Notes: generated by a model not told the origin, from the sequence alone. 64,000 nucleotides of DNA from Minisyncoccota bacterium (GCA_036399335.1 DASWNF010000014.1:209642-273641); one strand, 5' to 3'. Shown: positions 7,683 to 25,140, counted from the stretch's first letter. Numbers and translations are program-made.

Positions 7683-8648
7683 ATGGCCGGATTAGTCCAG
7701 GCAGTCATCTTCGTCGTCTCGCTCGCCGTCGTTTGGATCTTTGCCGGCATACTGGTTGAGGCCGTCAGCCGCATCTCCCGCCAGTACTGCCGGAACGGTT
7801 TCTTCACGGCCTTTTTCGTCCTTGGCTTCCTGACGTCGATAAGCGAGTTCTCCGTGGCGATTAACTCGAGCCTTGCCGGCGTACCTTCCGTCTCTGCCGG
7901 GAACTTGATCGGCGCGTCCTATGTCATCCTTTTCCTCATCGTGCCCTTGCTCGCCATTGCCGGCGGTGGGATAGCCCTCAACCAAGCGGTCTCGCCACGG
8001 AGTATCTTTATTACGATTGCGGCGACGGTACTTCCCGTGCTCCTTATCGTCGACGGCGACGTGACCCGGGGAGAGGGGTTGCTCGCGCTTCTTGCATACG
8101 CCGCCGTCGCCTTTACGCTGTACCGCCAGAAGCGCGAAATTGCCGCGTGCGACATTGAACGGGGGGACGGCCAGCGCCTCGCGCCGTTGTTTGCCGACCT
8201 GGGCAAGATCCTTGCCGGCGGCATAGCGATATTCACGGCCGCGCATTTCCTCGTCGAAGAAGCCGTGTACTTTGCCGGCATCCTTGGCGTGCCCGTATCG
8301 CTTGTCGGCCTGCTCTTACTGTCTATCGGCACGAACGTGCCCGAGCTAGTCATTGCTGCTCGGGCCGTAATGCGCGGGCGCACCGACATCGCCTTCGGGG
8401 ACTACCTCGGCTCGACTTCCATGAATACGTTCATCTTCGGCCTCCTCGCACTCTTCTCGGGCCGGTTCTACGTAGCGGCAGAGGAATTCGTCATGACGGC
8501 GGCGCTTTTCGTCGTAGGCGGCATCGTCCTCTTCCTTTTTGCTTACTCACGACGCTACATTTCTCGTACTGAGGGGGCGTTCCTCCTGCTGTTCTACATC
8601 ACCTTTGTCGTGCTCCAGGCGTATGCCGCCGCACGGATAGCTGGTTAG
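7683..8648 (+). CDS. Na+/Ca2+ exchanger (CaCA family) membrane protein
   Basis: two alpha-repeat regions incl. LSIGTNVPELVIA motif, ~10 TM. Confidence 0.7.
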   Translation: MAGLVQAVIFVVSLAVVWIFAGILVEAVSRISRQYCRNGFFTAFFVLGFLTSISEFSVAINSSLAGVPSVSAGNLIGASYVILFLIVPLLAIAGGGIALNQAVSPRSIFITIAATVLPVLLIVDGDVTRGEGLLALLAYAAVAFTLYRQKREIAACDIERGDGQRLAPLFADLGKILAGGIAIFTAAHFLVEEAVYFAGILGVPVSLVGLLLLSIGTNVPELVIAARAVMRGRTDIAFGDYLGSTSMNTFIFGLLALFSGRFYVAAEEFVMTAALFVVGGIVLFLFAYSRRYISRTEGAFLLLFYITFVVLQAYAAARIAG

Positions 8649-15876: not shown

Positions 15877-15920
15877 TTCTGTTGCCAAGCGGTCTACCAT
15901 CCGCTCCGAATCTTATTCAA
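15877..15920. repeat. 44-nt direct repeat copy 1 (ttctgttgccaagcgg-loop-ccgctccgaaNcttattca)
   Basis: near-identical to 16217..16260 except central loop and 2 flanking nt; contains short GCGG/CCGC hairpin. Confidence 0.8.
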
Positions 15921-15933
15921 ACGGTCCTACCGC

Positions 15934-16086
15934 TTAGCGCTTGGGGCGCTGCGCGGGCGGACGGGGCTGGGAAACCCCGGCCGAACCGGTATTGGCTCCG
16001 GCCATGCTCTCACCTCCTTTCTGATCGATTGAGGGACGGGGATTGGAGACCCCCGCAGAACCAACATTCACTCCTGACACGTACAT
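15934..16086 (-). CDS. small Gly/Ser/Pro-rich peptide, internally tandem-duplicated (candidate precursor peptide)
   Basis: minus-strand ORF MYVSGVNVGSAGVSNPRPSIDQKGGESMAGANTGSAGVSQPRPPAQRPKR (50 aa; below the 60-aa ORF-track cutoff). Two Shine-Dalgarno GGAGGTG boxes: one spaced 8 nt before an in-frame GTG three codons into the ORF (ATG 16084 itself has only a 2-nt spacer), one 6 nt before the internal ATG at 16005. Halves align at nucleotide level with differences concentrated at 3rd codon positions of this frame. Confidence 0.5.
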   Translation of the reverse strand: MYVSGVNVGSAGVSNPRPSIDQKGGESMAGANTGSAGVSQPRPPAQRPKR

Positions 16087-16216
16087 CACCTCCTCTCTCG
16101 TCAGACGGTTAAAGAACTAATCTCGATGAGACCTCGACGAATCAAGGGCTCAATAGAGGGGAGAAGTGGTGCTTCTCCCAGTAGTTTTATTTCCACCTCC
16201 TTTCGGATTGGGAAAC

Positions 16217-16260
16217 TTCTGTTGCCAAGCGGGATTGCACCCGCTCCGAAGCTTATTCAG
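16217..16260. repeat. 44-nt direct repeat copy 2
   Basis: see copy 1; lies between rSAM stop (16277) and peptide ORF. Confidence 0.8.
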
Positions 16261-16276: not shown

Positions 16277-17437
16277 TTACCCGAGGAATCGCTGCACAGT
16301 AGCCAACTCAGCGCTGAATGACTCCTTTCCGATTGCTCTCCACCACTTCTCAGCGGTTTCTGCGAATACGGTTGGGACGTCCAGTTCCTCGGACACTCGC
16401 GCGATGCTGAAGTGGGAAAGGTCGTTGCCTTTCGCATCCGTACCCCGCTGGAGGTCTTCCAGCGAATGTTGGATGCAGAAGGGAACCCTCCACCAACCGT
16501 CAGCATCAACAACGAGCGTCTCGTTGACCTGCAGAGATTTCGGATAGAAGTACAGCGGGATGCCCACATCGAGTACGATGGCGTTATATTCGACCATCGC
16601 GTTCGACAGAGCCTTCCGTGCCGTCTCCTTACCGAGAATCTGTAGCAGGACAACGAAGTCTGCGAGGGAGTACGTCCGGAGAAATACCGGACGCTCCCAC
16701 GTGGACCCAAGAAGCTGTTCCAGCGCCTTCGTTAGCTCCCGCTCATCCGCGCGCATGTGCTCGAGTCCAGGCCTCAACGACATAGTCGTCAGATGCCATT
16801 CATCGACCAGGGGAGCGAGCATTTCGCCCGTCTCCCGCACATCGTCGCAGTTGAGCGAGCTGAGCGTATAAAGCGACGTCACCTTCCCGGTTGGGCTTAC
16901 AAGCCGCCGAGCGTTGGTGAGTCCCTTCATCGCCCACGCGTAAGCCTGCTGGCTCGCGCGCTGTGCATTGTGGGTGCGTTCCGTCCCGTCCACCGATACG
17001 TCGAGCGTATCGATTTCAAGGCCTTCCCGCTCACAGAGCGACAGCATCGCCGGGGTCACGTATTGGCCGTTGTTAATGACCGATACGCTGTATCCGGCGC
17101 GCTTGATCGCTGCGAGGACCGGCACCTGATGCGGGAGCAGTTGCCTGCCCTCATGCACCAGGTGACCAGATCCTGTGAGCTGCTCGAGCACGGAGATCAG
17201 AACCTCCGCGCTGAGCCGTTCGGAGTATCCTTTCGGACCCTCGAACGGGAAGATGCAGTGCTCGCACTGCACGGCGCAACCACCACGTACGATCCACGAG
17301 AGAAGGGGAGGGATCTCCGAACGCAGCTGCGCCCGGATATGGTCTCCGAGATCTTCGCTGTGGACGACGGCGTGGAGCCAGGAGTCGATCGCCGTCCCAT
17401 TGGACGCCGACTCACTCGGGGTGGGGTCTTGGGTCAT
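16277..17437 (-). CDS. radical SAM domain protein
   Basis: CxxxCxxC cluster GGCAVQCEHC near N-terminus (aa ~53-60); 386 aa; no clear SPASM Cys cluster seen. Confidence 0.55.
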   Translation of the reverse strand: MTQDPTPSESASNGTAIDSWLHAVVHSEDLGDHIRAQLRSEIPPLLSWIVRGGCAVQCEHCIFPFEGPKGYSERLSAEVLISVLEQLTGSGHLVHEGRQLLPHQVPVLAAIKRAGYSVSVINNGQYVTPAMLSLCEREGLEIDTLDVSVDGTERTHNAQRASQQAYAWAMKGLTNARRLVSPTGKVTSLYTLSSLNCDDVRETGEMLAPLVDEWHLTTMSLRPGLEHMRADERELTKALEQLLGSTWERPVFLRTYSLADFVVLLQILGKETARKALSNAMVEYNAIVLDVGIPLYFYPKSLQVNETLVVDADGWWRVPFCIQHSLEDLQRGTDAKGNDLSHFSIARVSEELDVPTVFAETAEKWWRAIGKESFSAELATVQRFLG

Positions 17438-17649
17438 GGCGCATCTCCTGCTTGGCGTGATTGCCAGTCAACGTTCAAAACTCTGGTGTGATTCTGCGTT
17501 GAATCCAGGCTATAGTCAAGACAACTGACTCAAAAATGCAGGCATAAATAGCGCAATATGTCCTGTATATAGAAGCTATTATAAATACTAGTTACGATTA
17601 GTCGTCAGAAATATTGACACTAAATCAAAAATAGAATACGCTTTAAAAT

Positions 17650-18384
17650 ATGAATATCTCAGAGGCGCTATCGATCCTGGGCCTAAATGAGAAGCAGACG
17701 GCTGTTTACTTGGCCCTCCTTCAGCTCGGAAAGGGCAGTGCTTACTCGATCGCAGATAAAAGTGGGCTGAAGCGCCCGACCACTTACGTCATTCTTGGCG
17801 AGCTGGTCGATAAGGGTCTTGTCGAACGCGTCCCTAGAGCGCGTAAGCAGCTGTACCGCGCTATCTCTCCAGAACAGGCCTTTGGCGTGGCAGAGGAGAG
17901 GCTTTCGTTAGCTAAAGAGAAGCTACCTGAACTGCTCGCTATGACTAAGGGAGCAGAAACAAAGGTGAGCGCCATTTACTTCGAAGGGCAGAAGGGGTTA
18001 AAGCAGCTCATGGAGTACAAGCGTGACGAAGACAAAGGGAAAGAAGTTCGGGCTTTTTACGCTACTGCCGCGGGCCTGCCCCAGGAACTTGAAGACTACT
18101 TCAGCGAATACAACGAGAAGCTAAGGAAGCGAGGTGTCACAATGCGAGCGATAGTCCCAGATCACCCCTCCCTCGAGCCACATCGTGCTCTCGACGAACA
18201 TTTGAAACGCGATGTTAAGAAGGTGCCATATGATCAGTACTCCTCTGAGATTGCTATCGATATATCGGACCGCGTCGTGCGCATTCAGGACTATAAAAAC
18301 CTCCAGGGTATTGCCATAGAGAATGCCGACGTAGCTAAGACCATGCGGGAGATATTCGAGATGTTGTGGAGTAGGGTAGATTGA
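17650..18384 (+). CDS. TrmB-family HTH transcriptional regulator
   Basis: N-terminal LGLNEKQTAVYLALLQLGKGSAYSIADKSGLKRPTTYVILGELVDKGLVERV matches TrmB HTH; 244 aa. Confidence 0.7.
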   Translation: MNISEALSILGLNEKQTAVYLALLQLGKGSAYSIADKSGLKRPTTYVILGELVDKGLVERVPRARKQLYRAISPEQAFGVAEERLSLAKEKLPELLAMTKGAETKVSAIYFEGQKGLKQLMEYKRDEDKGKEVRAFYATAAGLPQELEDYFSEYNEKLRKRGVTMRAIVPDHPSLEPHRALDEHLKRDVKKVPYDQYSSEIAIDISDRVVRIQDYKNLQGIAIENADVAKTMREIFEMLWSRVD

Positions 18385-18408
18385 GCGGCCTGAAGATGAA
18401 GTAAGATA

Positions 18409-19485
18409 ATGAAAGCAAACATGCCAAGAATCAAAAGACCAAACGAACTCCATGCAGTTGATTTCTTCTGCTCTGGCGGAGGTATGACCTGCGGCCTTCG
18501 ACAGGCGGGGATCGAGGTCATTGCTGGGATAGATAATGATCCCCAGTGTAAGGAAACATACGAGAAGAATAATCCAGGCACTCAGTTTATTCTCGCCGAT
18601 GTGTTCGATCTAAAAGAGAAAGAACTCTCCAAGCAGCTGAATCTGAAGCGCAATGACGATAATCTAATACTCATTGGATGCAGCCCCTGCCAATTCTGGT
18701 CCATAATTCAAACAAGCAAAAAGAAGGCCGAGAAATCAAAGAATCTCCTCGTTGAGTTCAAGAGATTCGTGGACTACCTGAACCCAGGTTACGTCCTTGT
18801 AGAGAACGTGCCAGGGATTCTAGCCAGGAAAGACGAAAGCGGACTTGCTGCCTTTATTGAGGACCTCGAACGTAAGGGATATAGCGTTCACTACGAAGTA
18901 GTGAACATGAGTGAACATGGGGTTCCCCAGATGCGAAAACGCTTCTCCCTTATCGCAAGCCGGTTACATAAGGAACCACTCAAGCTCTCAAAAGAAGCTT
19001 CTTACTTCCCGTTGGTAAAAGATGTGATTGGAAAGGAGAAGGGCTTCAAGTCCATTCCTGCTGGATATCATGACAAGACCGACACACAACATTCAACAGC
19101 GAATCTTACGCAGAAGAATCTCGAACGACTGGAGAAAACTAAAAAAAATGGAGGATCATGGCTAGATTGGGCAGAGGACCCTAAACTTAAGCGGAAGTCA
19201 TACAAGGGTAAGGAATTTAAAGATAACTACGGGCGCATGCGTTGGGACAAGCCTGCGCCGACAATTACTACTAAGTTCGCAAGCATCTCAAATGGACGTT
19301 TCGCTCACCCAGAAGAAAACCGAGGCATTTCGCTCCGGGAGGGAGCAACTCTTCAGACGTTCCCGGCCGATTATGTATTTCATACTGAGAGCTTTGGCGT
19401 TGCTGCGCGCATCATAGGTAACGCGGTACCCCCAGCGTTTGCAAAGAAATTGGGCAAGCGTATTGTGAACGCACACAAAACCTAG
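18409..19485 (+). CDS. DNA (cytosine-5)-methyltransferase
   Basis: motif I FCSGGGMTCG, motif IV GCSPCQFWS (PC), motif VI ENV, motif VIII QMRKRF, motif X GNAVPP all in canonical order. Confidence 0.9.
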   Translation: MKANMPRIKRPNELHAVDFFCSGGGMTCGLRQAGIEVIAGIDNDPQCKETYEKNNPGTQFILADVFDLKEKELSKQLNLKRNDDNLILIGCSPCQFWSIIQTSKKKAEKSKNLLVEFKRFVDYLNPGYVLVENVPGILARKDESGLAAFIEDLERKGYSVHYEVVNMSEHGVPQMRKRFSLIASRLHKEPLKLSKEASYFPLVKDVIGKEKGFKSIPAGYHDKTDTQHSTANLTQKNLERLEKTKKNGGSWLDWAEDPKLKRKSYKGKEFKDNYGRMRWDKPAPTITTKFASISNGRFAHPEENRGISLREGATLQTFPADYVFHTESFGVAARIIGNAVPPAFAKKLGKRIVNAHKT

Positions 19486-21138
19486 ATGGCAAATCAACCT
19501 CTTGAAATGACGTTCGACCCGGCCACCATCGATCATCTCGGTGTCCGGATGTATTCTACGTTGCCTCCTGTGTTGGCTGAGCTAATTGCAAACTCGTATG
19601 ACGCGGATGCCCATAAGGTCGAGATAGGCCTTTTTGATGGCGATGAGACCAAGACTATTGTTGTCCACGACAACGGTCATGGGATGTCATTCAGCGACAT
19701 CAATGAAAAATTCTTGCGGATTGGACGTAATCGCCGTGACGAAGAAGACCAGAGAGAGACGCCAGAAGGAAGGAAGGTAATTGGTAAAAAAGGTCTTGGC
19801 AAACTCTCCTTCTTCGGCATTGCTAACGAAATTGAAATCGCTACCAGGAAAGAAGGGAAAGAAAACGTCTTTATCATGCGATGGGATGATATCAGGGATG
19901 CAAAGGCCGTATACAGTCCAGAAACCGTATTAGTAGATCGCGAATGCGACCCCGAGAGCAAGGGAACAACTATAACCCTAAGAGGGTTGAGAAGAAGTAC
20001 AGATTTTGACCCCCAGGCACTTGCAATATCACTATCGAAAATCTTCATCGTAGACGATGATTTTGAGATTCAAATAAGTCACAATGGCGAGACACCAGTT
20101 GAGGTGGAGAATGATAAAAAATACGACGACCTCGATAAAGAAGTTGAGTGGGACGTGCCAGATGAAGTAACCTTCGAATCTGACTACGAGAAAGCTGCAG
20201 AAATTAATGGCCACCTTATCGCTGCAGGGAAGCCGATTTCGCCCCGGACTAACATGCGGGGCGTGACGTTATTCTCCCGGAAGAAGTTGGTAAATCTTCC
20301 AGAATATTTCTCGGAAAGCACTTCGAGTCACTTCTTCTCGTATCTCACCGGTTGGCTTGAGGTCGATTTTATCGACGAGCTGGATGAAGATGTTATCTCG
20401 ACAGACCGACAGTCGCTAAACTGGGGCCATCCAGAAATGGAGAAACTAAGAGATCATTTGAGGAAGATGATGAACTGGCTCGAACAGGATTGGCGTCGCA
20501 AAAGGGAGGCCGTTAGAAAGAAGAAGATAGAGGAGCAGACGGGAATCAATACGGAAGACTGGTTCAGCAAGCTCCCTGAGGGAGTCCGCGCAAGCGCAGA
20601 GGCTGTGGTTAAGGCGATCGTGAAAGATTCTGAGCTTCCAGAAGAAGTAAGCACACGCGCCGTTAGAGACTTTCATTCTCTTGTTCCTGAATATCCCAGA
20701 TATCACTGGCGTCAGCTTCATCCAGAAATCCAAGATGCTTCCCGTGAGTACTACGAGCAAGGCGACTACTACCACGCGTTCATTGAAGCGGCTAAACGAT
20801 ACGTGAATGCTGTTCGATCCAAGGCAGTCCGAACAACACGTGACGAGCGCGCACTCATGCAAGAAGTATTTCCTGCTGCAAATCCGATGCTTTCTGTAAC
20901 AGAAGGGTATACCAAACCAGACGGAACAGACTTCACCGCAGATACTCTGACAAACATCCGTATAGCTCACCAGATGTTTTCCGAAGCAGTCATTTGCGGA
21001 GGGAGGCATCCTATATCTCACGAAGAGATTGCAGACCTGAGAGACTCCAGACTCTTTACTGAGGACGACTGTCTCGATGTACTAAGCCTCCTGTCGCACC
21101 TATTCTGGAGACTCGAGCATTCCACAAAATTGAGATAA
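19486..21138 (+). CDS. GHKL/MORC-type ATPase (HATPase_c_3-like) fused to C-terminal Ymh/TIGR02391-like putative HEPN domain
   Basis: Bergerat N-box ELIANSYDADA, G1 box VHDNGHGM, G2 GKKGLGKLS; C-terminal LHPEI...YYHAFIEAAKRYVNAVRSKA...GGRHPISHE with Rx4H HEPN-like motif; start codon overlaps MTase stop. Confidence 0.65.
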   Translation: MANQPLEMTFDPATIDHLGVRMYSTLPPVLAELIANSYDADAHKVEIGLFDGDETKTIVVHDNGHGMSFSDINEKFLRIGRNRRDEEDQRETPEGRKVIGKKGLGKLSFFGIANEIEIATRKEGKENVFIMRWDDIRDAKAVYSPETVLVDRECDPESKGTTITLRGLRRSTDFDPQALAISLSKIFIVDDDFEIQISHNGETPVEVENDKKYDDLDKEVEWDVPDEVTFESDYEKAAEINGHLIAAGKPISPRTNMRGVTLFSRKKLVNLPEYFSESTSSHFFSYLTGWLEVDFIDELDEDVISTDRQSLNWGHPEMEKLRDHLRKMMNWLEQDWRRKREAVRKKKIEEQTGINTEDWFSKLPEGVRASAEAVVKAIVKDSELPEEVSTRAVRDFHSLVPEYPRYHWRQLHPEIQDASREYYEQGDYYHAFIEAAKRYVNAVRSKAVRTTRDERALMQEVFPAANPMLSVTEGYTKPDGTDFTADTLTNIRIAHQMFSEAVICGGRHPISHEEIADLRDSRLFTEDDCLDVLSLLSHLFWRLEHSTKLR

Positions 21139-21363
21139 AATCATCAAGGTCGCGATGCGACTAAAACGCCTAAACCAAGGAGCGATCCGAGGCATGGCCA
21201 AATAAAAACCTACGCGAGCAGAAGCGGCCTCATAGGCTGGCTCTACTCGCGTAGGTCGGTGTCCCGAAAGGGCCTGGGTGATGTCCGAAAGGGTGTCATC
21301 GCCAGTTCTGTGGGGCCGCTTCTGTATCCAGACGGCCTCCTTACCAAAACCTACGCGAACCAT

Positions 21364-22014
21364 ATGAATCAGCCACATCGAGGGTTTACCGCCCTCACAA
21401 TCGCCATACTCCTCGGAATTCTGGTATTGCTGGGAGGAGTGGCAGCCACGATCGCGCTTAAGGCAGAAAAAACCGCCGTTGTGCCACTTACTGAGGCAAC
21501 CAGCACCGTTGCCGCACAAATCGCCCCTGAAGAGAACGTTGAGGCTCGTGTGGGCATCTTTCAAGCACCTGAAGTGACATCGCCAGCCGTAATTACACCG
21601 GCAGCGCCAGGAGTAGATCTAAAAGCAAGCTGTGTGACACAGGAAGCTCGCCTTTATCAGAAGCTTTTGTCCGAACTGCCCAAGCCCTCAGTAGCCACAC
21701 TCGATCGGCAGCGCAGCGCGCTTCTAAAGGCTCTGTATCCAGACTCAATGCCAGCAACAACGGAAGCAGAGCGCGCATCGCTCACGAGCGAACAGAGGCA
21801 AGCAGTAGCGTCGAAAGATTCAGATGCGATCACGACTGAGATCGATGAAGTGGCATACAGTCGGGAGAAGCTGGAACAGCAGGTCAATAACATCGACCGC
21901 CTATTTGACCCCTACAGCACACGCCTTAGGTGCGGTCAGGTGACCACAGAGGAACAGATTGCTCACGAACTGAAGCGCCTGGCCGACGAGATAGAAAGGC
22001 TGAATAAGTTTTAG
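21364..22014 (+). CDS. hypothetical membrane-anchored protein
   Basis: single TM (LTIAILLGILVLLGGVAATIAL) then Ala/Thr/Pro-rich and coiled-coil C-terminus. Confidence 0.45.
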   Translation: MNQPHRGFTALTIAILLGILVLLGGVAATIALKAEKTAVVPLTEATSTVAAQIAPEENVEARVGIFQAPEVTSPAVITPAAPGVDLKASCVTQEARLYQKLLSELPKPSVATLDRQRSALLKALYPDSMPATTEAERASLTSEQRQAVASKDSDAITTEIDEVAYSREKLEQQVNNIDRLFDPYSTRLRCGQVTTEEQIAHELKRLADEIERLNKF

Positions 22015-22535
22015 TCTGCGTGCACAAAAGTCGGAGGATCCTAGAAAGTCCGACAGGGGAAAACTATTTTTGCGAACCTAGTAAATAGGCCATGAAAAGC
22101 ACACTTTAGAATAGTTTTCCCCCTTAAATCGGGTTTTCTGGAAAAGGAGTTTTGTGCACCTTTGCGCCCTGTCTGTAGCCTCGATATAATGGTCGAGGAA
22201 ACAACAAAATAATCGAAAGTAATCGATATCTGAAAGCTGATTGGTCCGTAAGGACTGACGCCGATCTGCGTAAAGTAACCCCAAGCCCGTTCGTCTTAGT
22301 TTCTGGGGGGCCGCTTCTACAGCAAGGGTTCTCCAGCTTACCCACTTGCTGGTATCGATTAGTCGTACTGCGCCTTTGGCAGTAAGGCTGAGTGTGAAGC
22401 CTCAGGATTGATCGCGACTGCATATGCAGCCGTGCTTAATCCCGAGGCTTTTCGCGTTTCTGTCAGCCGGTATTTGCCCCTCTTCTGTTGGGTATGGTCA
22501 ACCGGCTGACCTTATCCAACAGAAGGAGGACAAAC

Positions 22536-22721
22536 ATGTTAACGGTTGAAGAATGTAAGAGGCTTATAGGAGCACCAAGCATGCCTGACGGCGAAGTTAA
22601 GCGAATCAGAGAGCTGTTGTACGCCTTTGTGGAAAGAACGCTGGACTATGTAGATGAAACCGGCATGTTTGTCTCTGAAAAGCCGGTATGTCAAACAAAC
22701 ACAATGAACACAGTAAAGTAA
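22536..22721 (+). CDS. small protein upstream of and overlapping recombinase (possible accessory/RDF-like, speculative)
   Basis: strong SD gaaggagg 7 nt before ATG 22536; 61 aa; overlaps recombinase start by 34 nt. Confidence 0.35.
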   Translation: MLTVEECKRLIGAPSMPDGEVKRIRELLYAFVERTLDYVDETGMFVSEKPVCQTNTMNTVK

Positions 22722-24340
22722 TAGCCTTAATCTATTGCAGGGTCTCATCTGAGCGCCAAGCAAAGGAAGGGCACGGACTAGATAGCCAGGAACACAGATG
22801 CCGGGCGTATGCTGATACGAAGGATTATCACGTTGAGGAAGTATTCAGAGACAGCGCAAGCGGAGGAGGGGACTTTATGAACCGTCCCGCAATGCAAGAA
22901 ATGCTGCATTACATCGATAAGCATCCGCACAAAAACTACACGGTTATCTTCGACGATCTGAAGAGGTTTGCTCGAGACACTGTGTTTCACCTCAAGCTGC
23001 GTGCTGCGCTACAGATGCGCAACGTGAAGCCGGAATGTCTAAACTACGTGTTCGACGATTCCCCGGAGGGAACCTTCGTAGAAACGATATTCGCGGCACA
23101 AGGTCAACTAGAGCGTGAACAAAATAGGCGACAGGTAATTCAAAAGCAGAAGGCGCGACTTGAGCAGGGTTACTGGCCTTTCTATCCGCCGCCAGGTTAC
23201 CAGCAAGTCAGAGAGGTTGCTCATGGAAAAGTCCTAAGGATTATTGAACCTGAGGCGAGTCTCATTCGAGAAGCGTTTGAGGGATTTGCATCTGATCGGT
23301 TCATGACTCAAGCTGATGTGGCTCGTTTTCTACAAGACTCTAATTACAACAAGGGTCGCCCAGTGTACGTAGAAGGCGTAAGACGACTCCTTAGAAGGGT
23401 AGTGTATGCCGGATACGTAGAGCGAGAGGAGTGGGAGGTCTCCAGGCGACCAGGTCAGCATAAGGGACTAGTCAGTATTGAAGTATTCCAGAAGGTGCAG
23501 GAGAAACTCGACGGTAAATGTAAAGTTCGATCGCGACTAAGCGACCGAATGGACTTCGCGTTACGAGGCCTGTTGCTCTGTGATTACTGCAACAAAACTC
23601 TCACAGGCAGCTGGAGTAGAGGTAGGAACAAAATGTATCGTTACTACCGCTGCAAGACGTCAACGTGTGTTCGCTTCAATAAGAGTGTTAATGGCGACTT
23701 CGTTGATAGAGAATTCAAGACCCTATTACGGTCAGCCGTACCACGTATTGAGTTGCTTGAGCTGGCAAAAAGAGTACTGATAGACCTCTGGGGCAAAAGA
23801 GTGAAGCTGTTGGATCAACGCAGAATAGAAGTAGAAAGGAAAATTGAGGAGTCGTCTCGACAGGTCGATCTTCTGACAACACGAATCACGAGAACAATGG
23901 ACGAGTCGCTTATATACGTCTATGAGCGTCAAATATTGAAGGCTAGAGACGATAGCATCGCCCTACAAGGGCAACTTAAAACGATTGGTCTGTCAGCGGC
24001 TCATATTGAAACCGCCCTCGAGGTGGTTACAAGTTATCTAAAAGATCCAGTAAGTACATGGGAAAATGGAGACTTAAAAGCAAAAAGACTAGTCTTCGGA
24101 CTAGTCTTTGCTGATAAGTTGGTCTTCCACCATAAAGATGGGTTTGAAACCGCACAAAAGCCGCTTATTACGGGGCTATTTGAGCAAATCTCTACCAAAG
24201 AATCACAGGATGTGGAGGTGGGGAGAGTTGAACTCCCGTCCAGCCTGGCTTTGAGAGCGATTCTACGACGCGTAGTCGGCATTGAAGATTCGGCAGGGGC
24301 ATCGGAATGCCGACGAAAACGTCCTTGCCTAGGTCCTTAA
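22688..24340 (+). CDS. large serine recombinase (phage-integrase type)
   Basis: N-terminal resolvase catalytic domain ALIYCRVSSERQ (catalytic Ser), recombinase domain, zinc-ribbon CDYC...YYRC, coiled coil; C-terminal ~128 nt overlap tmRNA 3' end on opposite strand. Confidence 0.85.
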   Translation: MSNKHNEHSKVIALIYCRVSSERQAKEGHGLDSQEHRCRAYADTKDYHVEEVFRDSASGGGDFMNRPAMQEMLHYIDKHPHKNYTVIFDDLKRFARDTVFHLKLRAALQMRNVKPECLNYVFDDSPEGTFVETIFAAQGQLEREQNRRQVIQKQKARLEQGYWPFYPPPGYQQVREVAHGKVLRIIEPEASLIREAFEGFASDRFMTQADVARFLQDSNYNKGRPVYVEGVRRLLRRVVYAGYVEREEWEVSRRPGQHKGLVSIEVFQKVQEKLDGKCKVRSRLSDRMDFALRGLLLCDYCNKTLTGSWSRGRNKMYRYYRCKTSTCVRFNKSVNGDFVDREFKTLLRSAVPRIELLELAKRVLIDLWGKRVKLLDQRRIEVERKIEESSRQVDLLTTRITRTMDESLIYVYERQILKARDDSIALQGQLKTIGLSAAHIETALEVVTSYLKDPVSTWENGDLKAKRLVFGLVFADKLVFHHKDGFETAQKPLITGLFEQISTKESQDVEVGRVELPSSLALRAILRRVVGIEDSAGASECRRKRPCLGP

Positions 24341-24639
24341 TTTAAGCGCGCTGCCCGGACATGCAGGCGCCGATCCCGTAGGAGATTCCGCCCTGACCTT
24401 CCGCTACGGGAACCGGGAAGGGGAGGACGTCGCTAAGCGAAGCGAGCTAAAAGCTCAAGCTTACGCGCTCGCGAACGCAAAGTTGAAACTGTTCTTCGAG
24501 AAATACGGAGAAACAGTGTTCTTTGCGCTTGCAACAGTGTTGTTTGCAAGTATTTGTAGTTGCGGGATTTAGATGGACAGCAACCTTCCATCGCGTCGCA
24601 CGTATCTCAAAGTACAGACCGTCAAAGCCGGTCACCCCC
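24213..24639 (-). ncRNA. ssrA: tmRNA (ssrA)
   Basis: 5' GGGGGUGACCGGCUUUGACGG (cf. E. coli GGGGCUGAUUCUGGAUUCGACGG); 3' GGACGGGAGUUCAACUCUCCC-CACCUCC-A (cf. E. coli GGACGCGGGUUCAACUCCCGC-CAGCUCC-ACCA); 7-bp acceptor with G3:U70; internal tag ORF GCA AAC AAC ... GCG UAA = ANNTVASAKNTVSPYFSKNSFNFAFASA; adjacent to smpB. Confidence 0.8.
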
Positions 24640-24693: not shown

Positions 24694-25140
24694 TCAGGTA
24701 CGACGTTTCATTGCGCGATCCATGTCTCGTTTCGCGTCCTTAAGCTTCAAGTCTTCCCGTTTGTCGGACTTGTTCTTACCGCTCACGATGGCCACGCGCA
24801 CCTTCACATATCTCCCACTATTATACACTTCAAGTGGCACTACTGTCAATCCTTTGCGCTCTTCCGCTTCGGCTAAATCCGCTATCTCGGTCTTGTTTAA
24901 AAGGAGGCGGCGGTTCCGTTCCGGGTTATACCCGGCAGGAGTATTCCCTTGCTGGTACGGGGGAATGGACATGCCAATGAGAAAGGCCTCGCCCCCGCGT
25001 ACGACGACGCGCGAACCGTCCAGTTTCCCTTGTTTTGCGCGCACGGCCTTTACTTCGGCCCCGGATAGCTCGATGCCCGCCTGGAGCGTCGAAAGTACGG
25101 AGTAGCGGAGGCGCGCTTTCTTGTGTTCGATGAGCGTCAT
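24694..25140 (-). CDS. smpB: SsrA-binding protein SmpB
   Basis: GIELSGAEVKAV...GKLDGSRVVVRGGEAFLIGMSIPPY...RNRRLLLNK canonical SmpB. Confidence 0.9.
   Translation of the reverse strand: MTLIEHKKARLRYSVLSTLQAGIELSGAEVKAVRAKQGKLDGSRVVVRGGEAFLIGMSIPPYQQGNTPAGYNPERNRRLLLNKTEIADLAEAEERKGLTVVPLEVYNSGRYVKVRVAIVSGKNKSDKREDLKLKDAKRDMDRAMKRRT

Follow-up and report, generated by a model that had tools for sequence, protein, structure and literature searches.

A stretch of 64,000 nucleotides (nt) of DNA from a Minisyncoccota bacterium (GCA_036399335.1, DASWNF010000014.1:209642-273641; hereafter, the window) carries, side by side and on the same strand, a gene for a DNA cytosine-5 methyltransferase (C5-MTase) and a gene for a protein of 550 amino acids (aa) in which an N-terminal GHKL ATPase is joined through a transducer domain to a C-terminal HEPN domain of the Ymh family. 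This pair is an intact member of a kind already described computationally in 2008 and 2013, and it adds no new architecture. The HEPN domain replaces the PD-(D/E)xK DNase domain of related restriction enzymes, and the two types of protein represent an effector swap on a common GHKL core. With about an even chance of being right, the pair can be interpreted as a two-gene restriction-modification (R-M)-like module for defence and addiction, of the NmeAI type, which travels as cargo of a genomic island located by the ssrA gene and whose GHKL-HEPN protein acts as an ATP-gated RNase effector.

The C5-MTase (358 aa; the putative self-marking component) is encoded at 18409..19485 and the GHKL-transducer-HEPN protein (the predicted MTase-dependent effector, or 'R') at 19486..21138, both on the plus strand. 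Upstream of them, at 17650..18384 (plus strand), lies a gene for a TrmB-family winged-helix regulator of 244 aa (PF01978, E 1.9e-17, residues 7-75). Translation confirmed these three open reading frames (ORFs), which a previous interpretation of the window (the sequence-only reading) had placed at the same positions, and also located two of the short strings quoted in it, ELIAN (19579-19593) and RHPISH (21004-21021). Its domain assignments (C5-MTase, GHKL ATPase, and Ymh/HEPN with an Rx4H motif) all exceed the curated thresholds in hidden Markov model searches. The overlap between stop and start codons that it described does not exist: the TAG of the MTase gene (19483-19485) abuts the ATG at 19486. 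Public gene callers use an alternative start for the GHKL-Ymh protein, Met8, giving a product of 543 aa; the longer, 550-aa ORF is plausible because homologues conserve residues upstream of Met8 (L6).

Judging by its profile matches and motifs, the window MTase is a complete DNA cytosine methylase. It matches PF00145 in a single stretch (E 1.6e-59; 202.4 bits, cut-off 22) which spans profile positions 3-323 out of 324, scores 139.9 bits against TIGR00675 (cut-off 100.65) and matches the PADLOC model MTase_II (E 2.5e-89). Its translation shows, in order, the motifs FCSGGG (I), SPCQ (IV), ENV (VI), QMRKR (VIII) and GNAVPP (X). It is 55% identical to the NmeAI-like MTases of Neisseriaceae and Pasteurellaceae.

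In the 550-aa protein, the following parts can be differentiated, all on the plus strand: (i) a Bergerat-fold GHKL ATPase domain (residues 27-161; 19564..19968), supported by HATPase_c_3 (E 7.4e-25; 88 bits, cut-off 25) and containing motif I (E32xxxN36), the G1 box (D62xGxG) and the G2 box (G100KKGxGK); (ii) a transducer or S5-like middle domain (residues 162-315; 19969..20430), delimited by structural alignments and by the alignment with HgiDII-type proteins, which have this domain in common with the window protein, and in which the elements SSHFxSYLTG and DxxDVISTxR are invariant; (iii) a long helix followed by a helical linker (residues 316-408; 20431..20709), with DSSP helices at 316-352, 365-380 and 386-399; and (iv) a Ymh-family HEPN domain (residues 409-542; 20710..21111), matched by Hypoth_Ymh PF09509 (E 5.7e-13; 49.2 bits, cut-off 25) and TIGR02391 (E 2.5e-13; 50.2 bits, cut-off 39.45). 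The latter domain has the helical-bundle fold of HEPN proteins and contains the putative Rx4H catalytic motif, R507-H-P-I-S-H512, i.e., the RHPISH string located above.

An AlphaFold2 model of the protein, built on 57 homologues, reached a mean predicted local distance difference test score (pLDDT) of 85.5. In Foldseek comparisons, the first ~400 residues align over 370-440 columns with the ATPase modules of HtpG/Hsp90 and of MORC2/MORC3, including DNA-bound MORC2, with E values of about 1e-10 to 4e-13. Since these are matches to two-domain modules, the N-terminal part can be read as GHKL plus an S5-like transducer and, by homology, it would constitute an ATP-gated dimerising clamp of the MutL/Hsp90/MORC type. 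No ABC-type NTPase model matched the N-terminal domain in the Pfam or NCBIfam scans. Sequence searches of the PDB, performed with the family profile and with the C-terminus of HgiDII-type proteins, returned generic GHKL matches only, or none. Across 77 homologues that adjoin an MTase, residues E32, N36, D62, G64, G66, G100, K102, G103, G105, K106 and R507 are conserved without exception (77/77) and H512 is conserved in 76; in consequence, both predicted active sites are under purifying selection.

The proposed effector swap derives from the comparison with the BbrUII/HgiDII proteins. The top NCBIfam match of the window protein is NF050001, 'BbrUII/HgiDII family restriction enzyme' (E 2.5e-73, residues 7-380); its 247.7 bits lie well below the 550-bit equivalog cut-off, and only model positions 2-400 out of 659 are covered. 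Similarly, the PADLOC REase_II models match only the N-terminal core that is common to both types. True, full-length members of NF050001 are a Halobaculum plasmid protein (locus L082, 800.8 bits) and a protein of a P2-like phage of Escherichia coli (locus L083, 751.4 bits), whereas the Acinetobacter and Streptococcus versions are more distant HgiDII-type relatives. All the HgiDII-type genes compared (Halobaculum, E. coli phage, Acinetobacter, Streptococcus) adjoin C5-MTases, and these MTases are related to the partners of the GHKL-Ymh proteins (36-39% identity). In the alignment, homology between the window protein and the HgiDII-type proteins stops at about residue 395-400. The C-terminus of the latter bears PWLLDP...R(I/L)D...(I/V)IExK(R/H)P, a PD-(D/E)xK signature that is absent from the window protein and that agrees with the restriction-endonuclease fold predicted for paraMORC3 (Iyer et al., 2008). 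Thus, the BbrUII/HgiDII proteins (NF050001, which matches paraMORC3) resemble the window protein in their GHKL-transducer-helical core of ~380-400 aa and in their C5-MTase partner, but their effector is PD-(D/E)xK instead of HEPN.

The sequence-only reading maintained that the MTase has no conventional restriction endonuclease (REase) or Vsr partner. The absence of Vsr holds, as neither a Vsr gene nor a second nuclease gene is found anywhere in the 64-kb window; the statement about the REase overlooks that the N-terminal ~380 aa of the neighbouring protein match the BbrUII/HgiDII restriction-enzyme family and the REase_II models. A standard annotation pipeline would probably label the window pair as a Type II R-M system.

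Some observations concern the BbrUII/HgiDII family itself. In the P2-like Escherichia phage PhiR44_1 (L083 3992-7040), a full BbrUII/HgiDII gene, annotated as ParaMORC3, is convergent with a Dcm gene and sits between the portal and the replication genes. PHROG 6203, listed with 'unknown function', corresponds to the BbrUII/HgiDII family. Finally, the type of M.BbrUII is disputed, since it is given as a 5-methylcytosine (m5C) enzyme in PMC5867850 and as an N6-methyladenine (m6A) enzyme in PMC5829577; this disagreement bears on the experimental weight of the family name 'BbrUII/HgiDII restriction enzyme'.

Regarding its distribution, a protein search returned at least 2486 homologues, core-only HgiDII-type relatives included. 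The top 120 are all two-domain proteins of 489-572 aa (119 of them of 543-572 aa), 55-100% identical to the query, and the best match is an identical copy in public assemblies. Pattern scanning of GTDB, with each species represented by a single genome, yielded 155 relatives, the best 80 of which (42-70% identical) were used for the analysis of loci. These 80 loci span the Candidate Phyla Radiation (CPR)/Patescibacteria, DPANN archaea, Bacteroidales, Nitrospirales, Bdellovibrionales, Actinomycetota, Gammaproteobacteria, Neisseriaceae, Pasteurellaceae and streptococci, among others. According to phmmer, a C5-MTase gene is adjacent in 77 of the 80, mostly upstream in the same orientation, the two genes being separated by -49 to +51 nt. 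As for the remaining loci, the C5-MTase of L027 is short and divergent, with Vsr behind it; L064 sits at the edge of its contig; and L042, the sole copy lacking an MTase, is a truncated one whose HEPN motif is degraded. All intact, assessable copies are paired with a C5-MTase (78/78), and the adjacency of the two genes is hence strongly conserved, which supports the sequence-only reading on this point. Because GHKL-HEPN copies so strictly accompany an adjacent DNA MTase, the pair can be regarded as an R-M-like combination of toxin and antidote, in which the GHKL-HEPN protein is the sole candidate for the effector.

Besides the MTase (77 loci), the sole recurring neighbour family is Vsr, present in 27/80 loci; no other nuclease family recurs among them. 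Vsr is an optional component of the NmeAI-type cluster, and the window is one of the cases without it. In other loci, tRNA genes flank the pair. The TrmB-like gene, which the sequence-only reading included in the module, has no place in it: none of the 80 related loci has a TrmB homologue within ~6 kb. This gene lies 24 nt upstream of the MTase gene, is co-directional with it, and has an intermediate guanine-plus-cytosine (GC) content (0.517); it is at most a local transcriptional controller that belongs to the local context and not to the conserved module.

The fusion of GHKL and Ymh is not new to the literature: both parts were already found together in the putative REase R.NmeAIP (N-terminal GHKL, C-terminal Hypoth_Ymh) by Orlowski and Bujnicki (2008; PMC2441816). 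Later, Anantharaman et al. (2013; PMC3710099) assigned Ymh to the HEPN superfamily, described it as a C-terminal fusion to paraMORC GHKL ATPases encoded near R-M genes and suggested that such fusions play a part analogous to that of PrrC and RloC. The literature puts GHKL-Ymh proteins with the paraMORCs, from which MORCs in the strict sense differ by a specific motif (Iyer et al., 2008); 'MORC' should not be used here as a label for the family.

The NmeAI system of Neisseria meningitidis consists of three genes, one for M.NmeAI (an m5C enzyme acting on CCGG), one described as a 'restriction gene' and one for Vsr. The window pair is like NmeAI (M.NmeAI, putative R.NmeAIP, V.NmeAI) in that a GHKL plus Hypoth_Ymh 'R' gene is adjacent to a C5-MTase gene upstream. 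On the other hand, the Neisseria loci add Vsr, the host and mobile context differ, and, while M.NmeAI methylates CCGG, the target recognition domain (TRD) of the window MTase is only 36% identical to that of locus L062; the R gene is putative in Neisseria too. Homologues of the window protein in this group include one from Uruburuella (Neisseriaceae; 44% identity) and a Neisseria gonorrhoeae copy detected by tblastn over residues 1-548 (38.6% identity, E 3e-110). The gonococcal locus (L081 4107-7072; NZ_CP119142.1) comprises a frameshifted MTase gene, a GHKL-Ymh gene with in-frame stops and an intact Vsr gene: the M and 'R' genes have decayed together and the repair gene has been kept. The record NZ_CP119142.1, a 2.17-Mb N. 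gonorrhoeae sequence deposited as a 'plasmid', is evidently a chromosome.

The partner MTases in related loci belong to at least three classes, and their TRD identity to the window MTase ranges from 59% down to 13%. The pairwise divergences of MTase and GHKL-HEPN protein show a moderate correlation (Spearman 0.42), but in a sliding-window co-variation analysis of low power no 30-residue segment of the GHKL-HEPN protein tracked the TRD of the MTase (largest partial rho 0.19). In Neisseria, moreover, the phylogenies of the M and R genes of NmeAI are incongruent (PMC3787668). The diversity of partner classes, the lack of a co-varying segment and the incongruent phylogenies fit a specificity supplied by the MTase. 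Because lineages have exchanged MTases without a co-varying segment in the partner, the MTase may also be the part that recognises the sequence, like Mod in Type III systems.

GHKL ATPases and HEPN nucleases generally work as dimers, and in HEPN nucleases the dimer pairs two Rx4-6H motifs and cleaves RNA via the 2'-OH. In the mechanism proposed for the window pair, the MTase would mark the host DNA. A dimer of the GHKL-HEPN protein would then clamp unmethylated target DNA in an ATP-dependent manner, methylation keeping it silent; the target could be recognised directly or via the MTase as specificity subunit, in the Type III manner. The ATP-driven closure of the N-terminal part would activate the C-terminal HEPN pair which, in turn, would cleave RNA and not DNA, i.e., either invader transcripts or cellular RNA such as tRNA or rRNA, leading to growth arrest or abortive infection. 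The RNase part of this mechanism agrees with the PrrC/RloC-like RNase role that Anantharaman et al. (2013) had proposed independently. The domains, motifs, folds, conservation, gene adjacency and effector swap are observed, while we infer the RNase activity, the methylation sensing, the dimerisation and the contact with the MTase. An R-M system armed with an RNase, in which the C5-MTase both marks self and recognises the sequence while the GHKL clamp reads unmethylated DNA and ATP fires the HEPN domain, is put forward tentatively, at clearly less than an even chance.

Several points weigh against the proposed mechanism. The sole basis for the predicted RNase activity is HEPN membership together with the Rx4H motif, and neither an m5C-reader nor a sequence-recognition domain was identified in the GHKL-HEPN protein. 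The co-variation test, as said, has low power. REBASE-derived annotation classes the GHKL-Ymh protein as a DNA restriction enzyme; BbrUII/HgiDII, its closest named relatives, carry the restriction-enzyme name as well, and HgiDII, an isoschizomer of SalI, does cut DNA. Lastly, the literature searched yielded no experimental study, whether biochemical or genetic, of a Ymh or GHKL-Ymh protein and, as far as that literature shows, the sequence-only reading was right in describing the kind as experimentally uncharacterised.

The same restriction-enzyme homology can be taken at face value: the GHKL-Ymh protein would be a classical Type II REase that recognises the site of its MTase and cuts unmethylated DNA, either with the HEPN domain, in a DNase role without precedent, or with an active site not yet recognised, such as D294, D297 and D302, an acidic cluster of the transducer domain which is conserved in both Ymh-type and DNase-type proteins. 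The matches to the BbrUII/HgiDII family and to the PADLOC REase_II models, the conserved acidic cluster and the strict pairing with an MTase, as for any R gene, are in agreement with this possibility. Nevertheless, the homology is limited to the ATPase/transducer core, and the domain bearing PD-(D/E)xK is exactly what the window protein lacks. To our knowledge, every catalytic HEPN domain characterised so far is a metal-independent RNase acting through the 2'-OH. A REase that recognises the site itself is also at variance with the lack of any segment co-varying with the TRD of the MTase, and endonuclease activity of NmeAI is not reported in the literature consulted. A classical Type II REase is therefore considered unlikely.

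A second alternative has the HEPN domain as a guardian of the PrrC/RloC type, held latent on the MTase or on another host R-M complex until a phage anti-restriction protein triggers it as an anticodon nuclease. This was the proposal of Anantharaman et al. (2013; PMC3710099). PrrC and RloC have in common with GHKL-Ymh proteins that an NTPase is joined to a HEPN RNase at the C-terminus and that the gene is linked to R-M genes. The tight packing of the two genes would also fit a protein complex. The parallel is incomplete, since the ATPase is ABC/Rad50-like in PrrC/RloC and GHKL here, and PrrC sits within a complete Type I system while here the MTase is the sole partner. In fact, the window contains no restriction subunit to guard, nor is there a recurring one among the 80 loci, and the module consists of just the two genes. 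That Vsr is so often present points to real DNA methylation by the MTase, yet it leaves the two possible triggers (unmethylated DNA or an anti-restriction protein) unseparated. On balance, a guardian is rather improbable, a little more so than a Type II REase. Much further down comes a MutL-like accessory of very-short-patch repair, with no role in defence, whose GHKL ATPase would aid Vsr or the host in dealing with T:G mismatches arising from m5C deamination. MutL stimulates Vsr in E. coli, the core of the window protein (GHKL plus transducer) is MutL-like, and Vsr is adjacent in 27/80 loci and in Neisseria; but 53/80 loci, and the window, have no Vsr, the invariant Rx4H motif of the HEPN domain has no role in such repair, the distribution is patchy across phyla and on mobile islands, and the same core is also found in nuclease-fused proteins. 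Such a repair function is very improbable.

Other systems share part of this architecture with the RNase-armed pair proposed here. VcSduA, in which GHKL is combined with PD-(D/E)xK, has been validated experimentally as an anti-phage protein, and its activity depends on the ATPase residues as well as on those of the nuclease (PMC12137116). VcSduA (Shedu type I-D), like the window protein, is a single polypeptide with an N-terminal GHKL ATPase, a clamp-like middle part and a C-terminal nuclease effector; unlike the window protein, it has a PD-(D/E)xK DNase (DUF4263) as effector and lacks an MTase partner. The Pfam and PADLOC scans gave no match of the window protein to a Shedu/DUF4263 model. Sacsin, a giant eukaryotic chaperone, combines Hsp90-like repeats with a C-terminal HEPN domain but without any methylase context, and its kinship is unproven. 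The PADLOC model PD-Lambda-3_B matches the window protein weakly (3.3e-4) and a Burkholderia member of the family (L086) more strongly (4.3e-13); the HEPN domain of this member also matches a model for HEPN proteins associated with prokaryotic Argonaute (pAgo) (Aga_HEPN, 3.7e-10). With PD-Lambda-3 subunit B and the pAgo-associated HEPN proteins the common part is the HEPN domain only, as partners and N-terminal domains differ. Filing the pair under MzaB or PD-Lambda-3_B was considered and rejected, since the PADLOC matches are weak and limited to a single domain.

The module lies in a low-GC genomic island of mosaic composition (17500..24210), whose left edge is taken from a drop in GC content and whose right edge is the 3' end of ssrA. 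The sequence-only reading had placed the genes in a low-GC element with a serine recombinase, and so it is: GC content is 0.47 in the MTase gene, 0.477 in the GHKL-Ymh gene and 0.472 in the recombinase gene, compared to 0.575 in the window, with a sharp drop at ~17500 and a value of 0.377 in the intergenic stretch 17438-17649. The large serine recombinase (integrase) is encoded at 22688..24340 on the plus strand and has Resolvase (E 7.1e-23), Recombinase and Zn_ribbon_recom domains, all three above the Pfam cut-off, plus a match to the integrase family phrog_95 (E 4.8e-66). Its ORF overlaps by ~130 nt the 3' end of the transfer-messenger RNA (tmRNA) gene, ssrA (24210..24639), which lies on the opposite, minus strand (ARAGORN; Rfam RF00023, 110 bits) and is followed by smpB (24694-25140, minus strand). 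Two metagenome-assembled genomes of Nomurabacteria (L001 and L002) present the same order, i.e., MTase, GHKL-HEPN, ~2 kb, recombinase, tmRNA and SmpB, and the tag peptides of their tmRNAs resemble that of the window: the host is therefore probably a CPR bacterium, and the island belongs to a recurrent type. Neither flanking direct repeats nor att sites were found for the island, an absence that is expected for a serine recombinase; in consequence, its left boundary rests on GC content only.

Between the GHKL-Ymh and recombinase genes, Rfam detects the LOOT small RNA (sRNA) (RF03000; 21167..21300, plus strand), 29 nt after the GHKL-Ymh stop codon, with 51 bits against a gathering score of 46.4. 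LOOT occurs in 6 of 81 module sequences (the 80 loci plus the window), all of them of CPR type, at one site in each and always after the GHKL-HEPN gene, at 29-570 nt from its stop codon and in either orientation. The other copies are located in L001 (7899-8017, minus), L002 (7675-7802, plus), L020 (7821-7942, plus), L022 (7825-7946, plus) and L029 (8242-8355, minus). A LOOT-like copy is also present in L131 (8399-8516, plus), a phage-like contig that encodes a terminase and a large serine recombinase and has neither an MTase nor a GHKL-HEPN gene. LOOT was thus rejected as an integral part of the module, given its presence in only 6/81 sequences and in the module-free L131. A pattern scan of viral contigs for LOOT gave mostly chance matches. 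Probably, LOOT belongs to serine-recombinase mobile elements of the CPR which often carry the module beside it; that it serves as substrate or regulator of the HEPN RNase is highly doubtful.

Public records include a further gene in this interval, ORF251 (21259..22014, plus strand), which has no Pfam, NCBIfam, PADLOC or PHROG match above threshold; its start overlaps LOOT, which casts doubt on the start position or even on the gene as such. A 77-aa ORF (22488-22721, plus strand) overlaps the start of the recombinase gene and has a weak homologue at the corresponding place in L002 (41% identity over 34 aa); this ORF is either an artefact or, possibly, a recombination directionality factor. Scans for sigma-70 promoters and terminators gave sites no commoner than in shuffled sequence. 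A second C5-MTase suspected near 10.3 kb (from repeat D2) was discarded, as the ORF there is not an MTase and the match is due to chance.

To the left of the island, a radical-SAM protein gene (16277-17437, minus strand) was considered as a viperin-like defence gene and rejected: the pVip match is weak (E 4e-6), NCBIfam makes no viperin call and the GC content resembles that of the host. The gene lies just outside the island and is probably an unrelated host gene. The non-coding stretch between this gene and a flavodoxin-like gene contains a 43-nt direct repeat (15877-15919 and 16217-16259; 86% identical, 340 nt apart) and a smaller three-copy repeat (16011-16208). Elsewhere, in the Nomurabacteria locus L006, an S-adenosylmethionine (SAM) riboswitch (7719-7834, plus strand) lies ~60 nt downstream of the GHKL-Ymh gene, presumably as leader of the host gene that follows.

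The value of the window is that it provides one more intact example, in a CPR host, of a large family that is carried on mobile islands and whose hosts range over CPR bacteria, DPANN archaea, Neisseria and Bacteroidales. Its members are routinely annotated as 'Type II restriction enzyme' or 'TIGR02391 family protein', though their effector domain belongs to an RNase superfamily, and the family may work by something other than DNA cleavage. Should the HEPN domain be the active effector, DNA-methylation sensing would be linked to RNA cleavage. An RNase-armed R-M system, if real, would discriminate self from non-self on DNA and kill on RNA, which is a class of R-M system not yet demonstrated, and R.NmeAIP-type entries in REBASE, a class that takes in many of the over 2000 homologues detected, would not be DNA endonucleases. 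In addition, the natural swap from DNase to HEPN on a common GHKL core would offer a comparative handle on how such ATPases gate nucleases, a matter relevant to MutL, MORC and sacsin.

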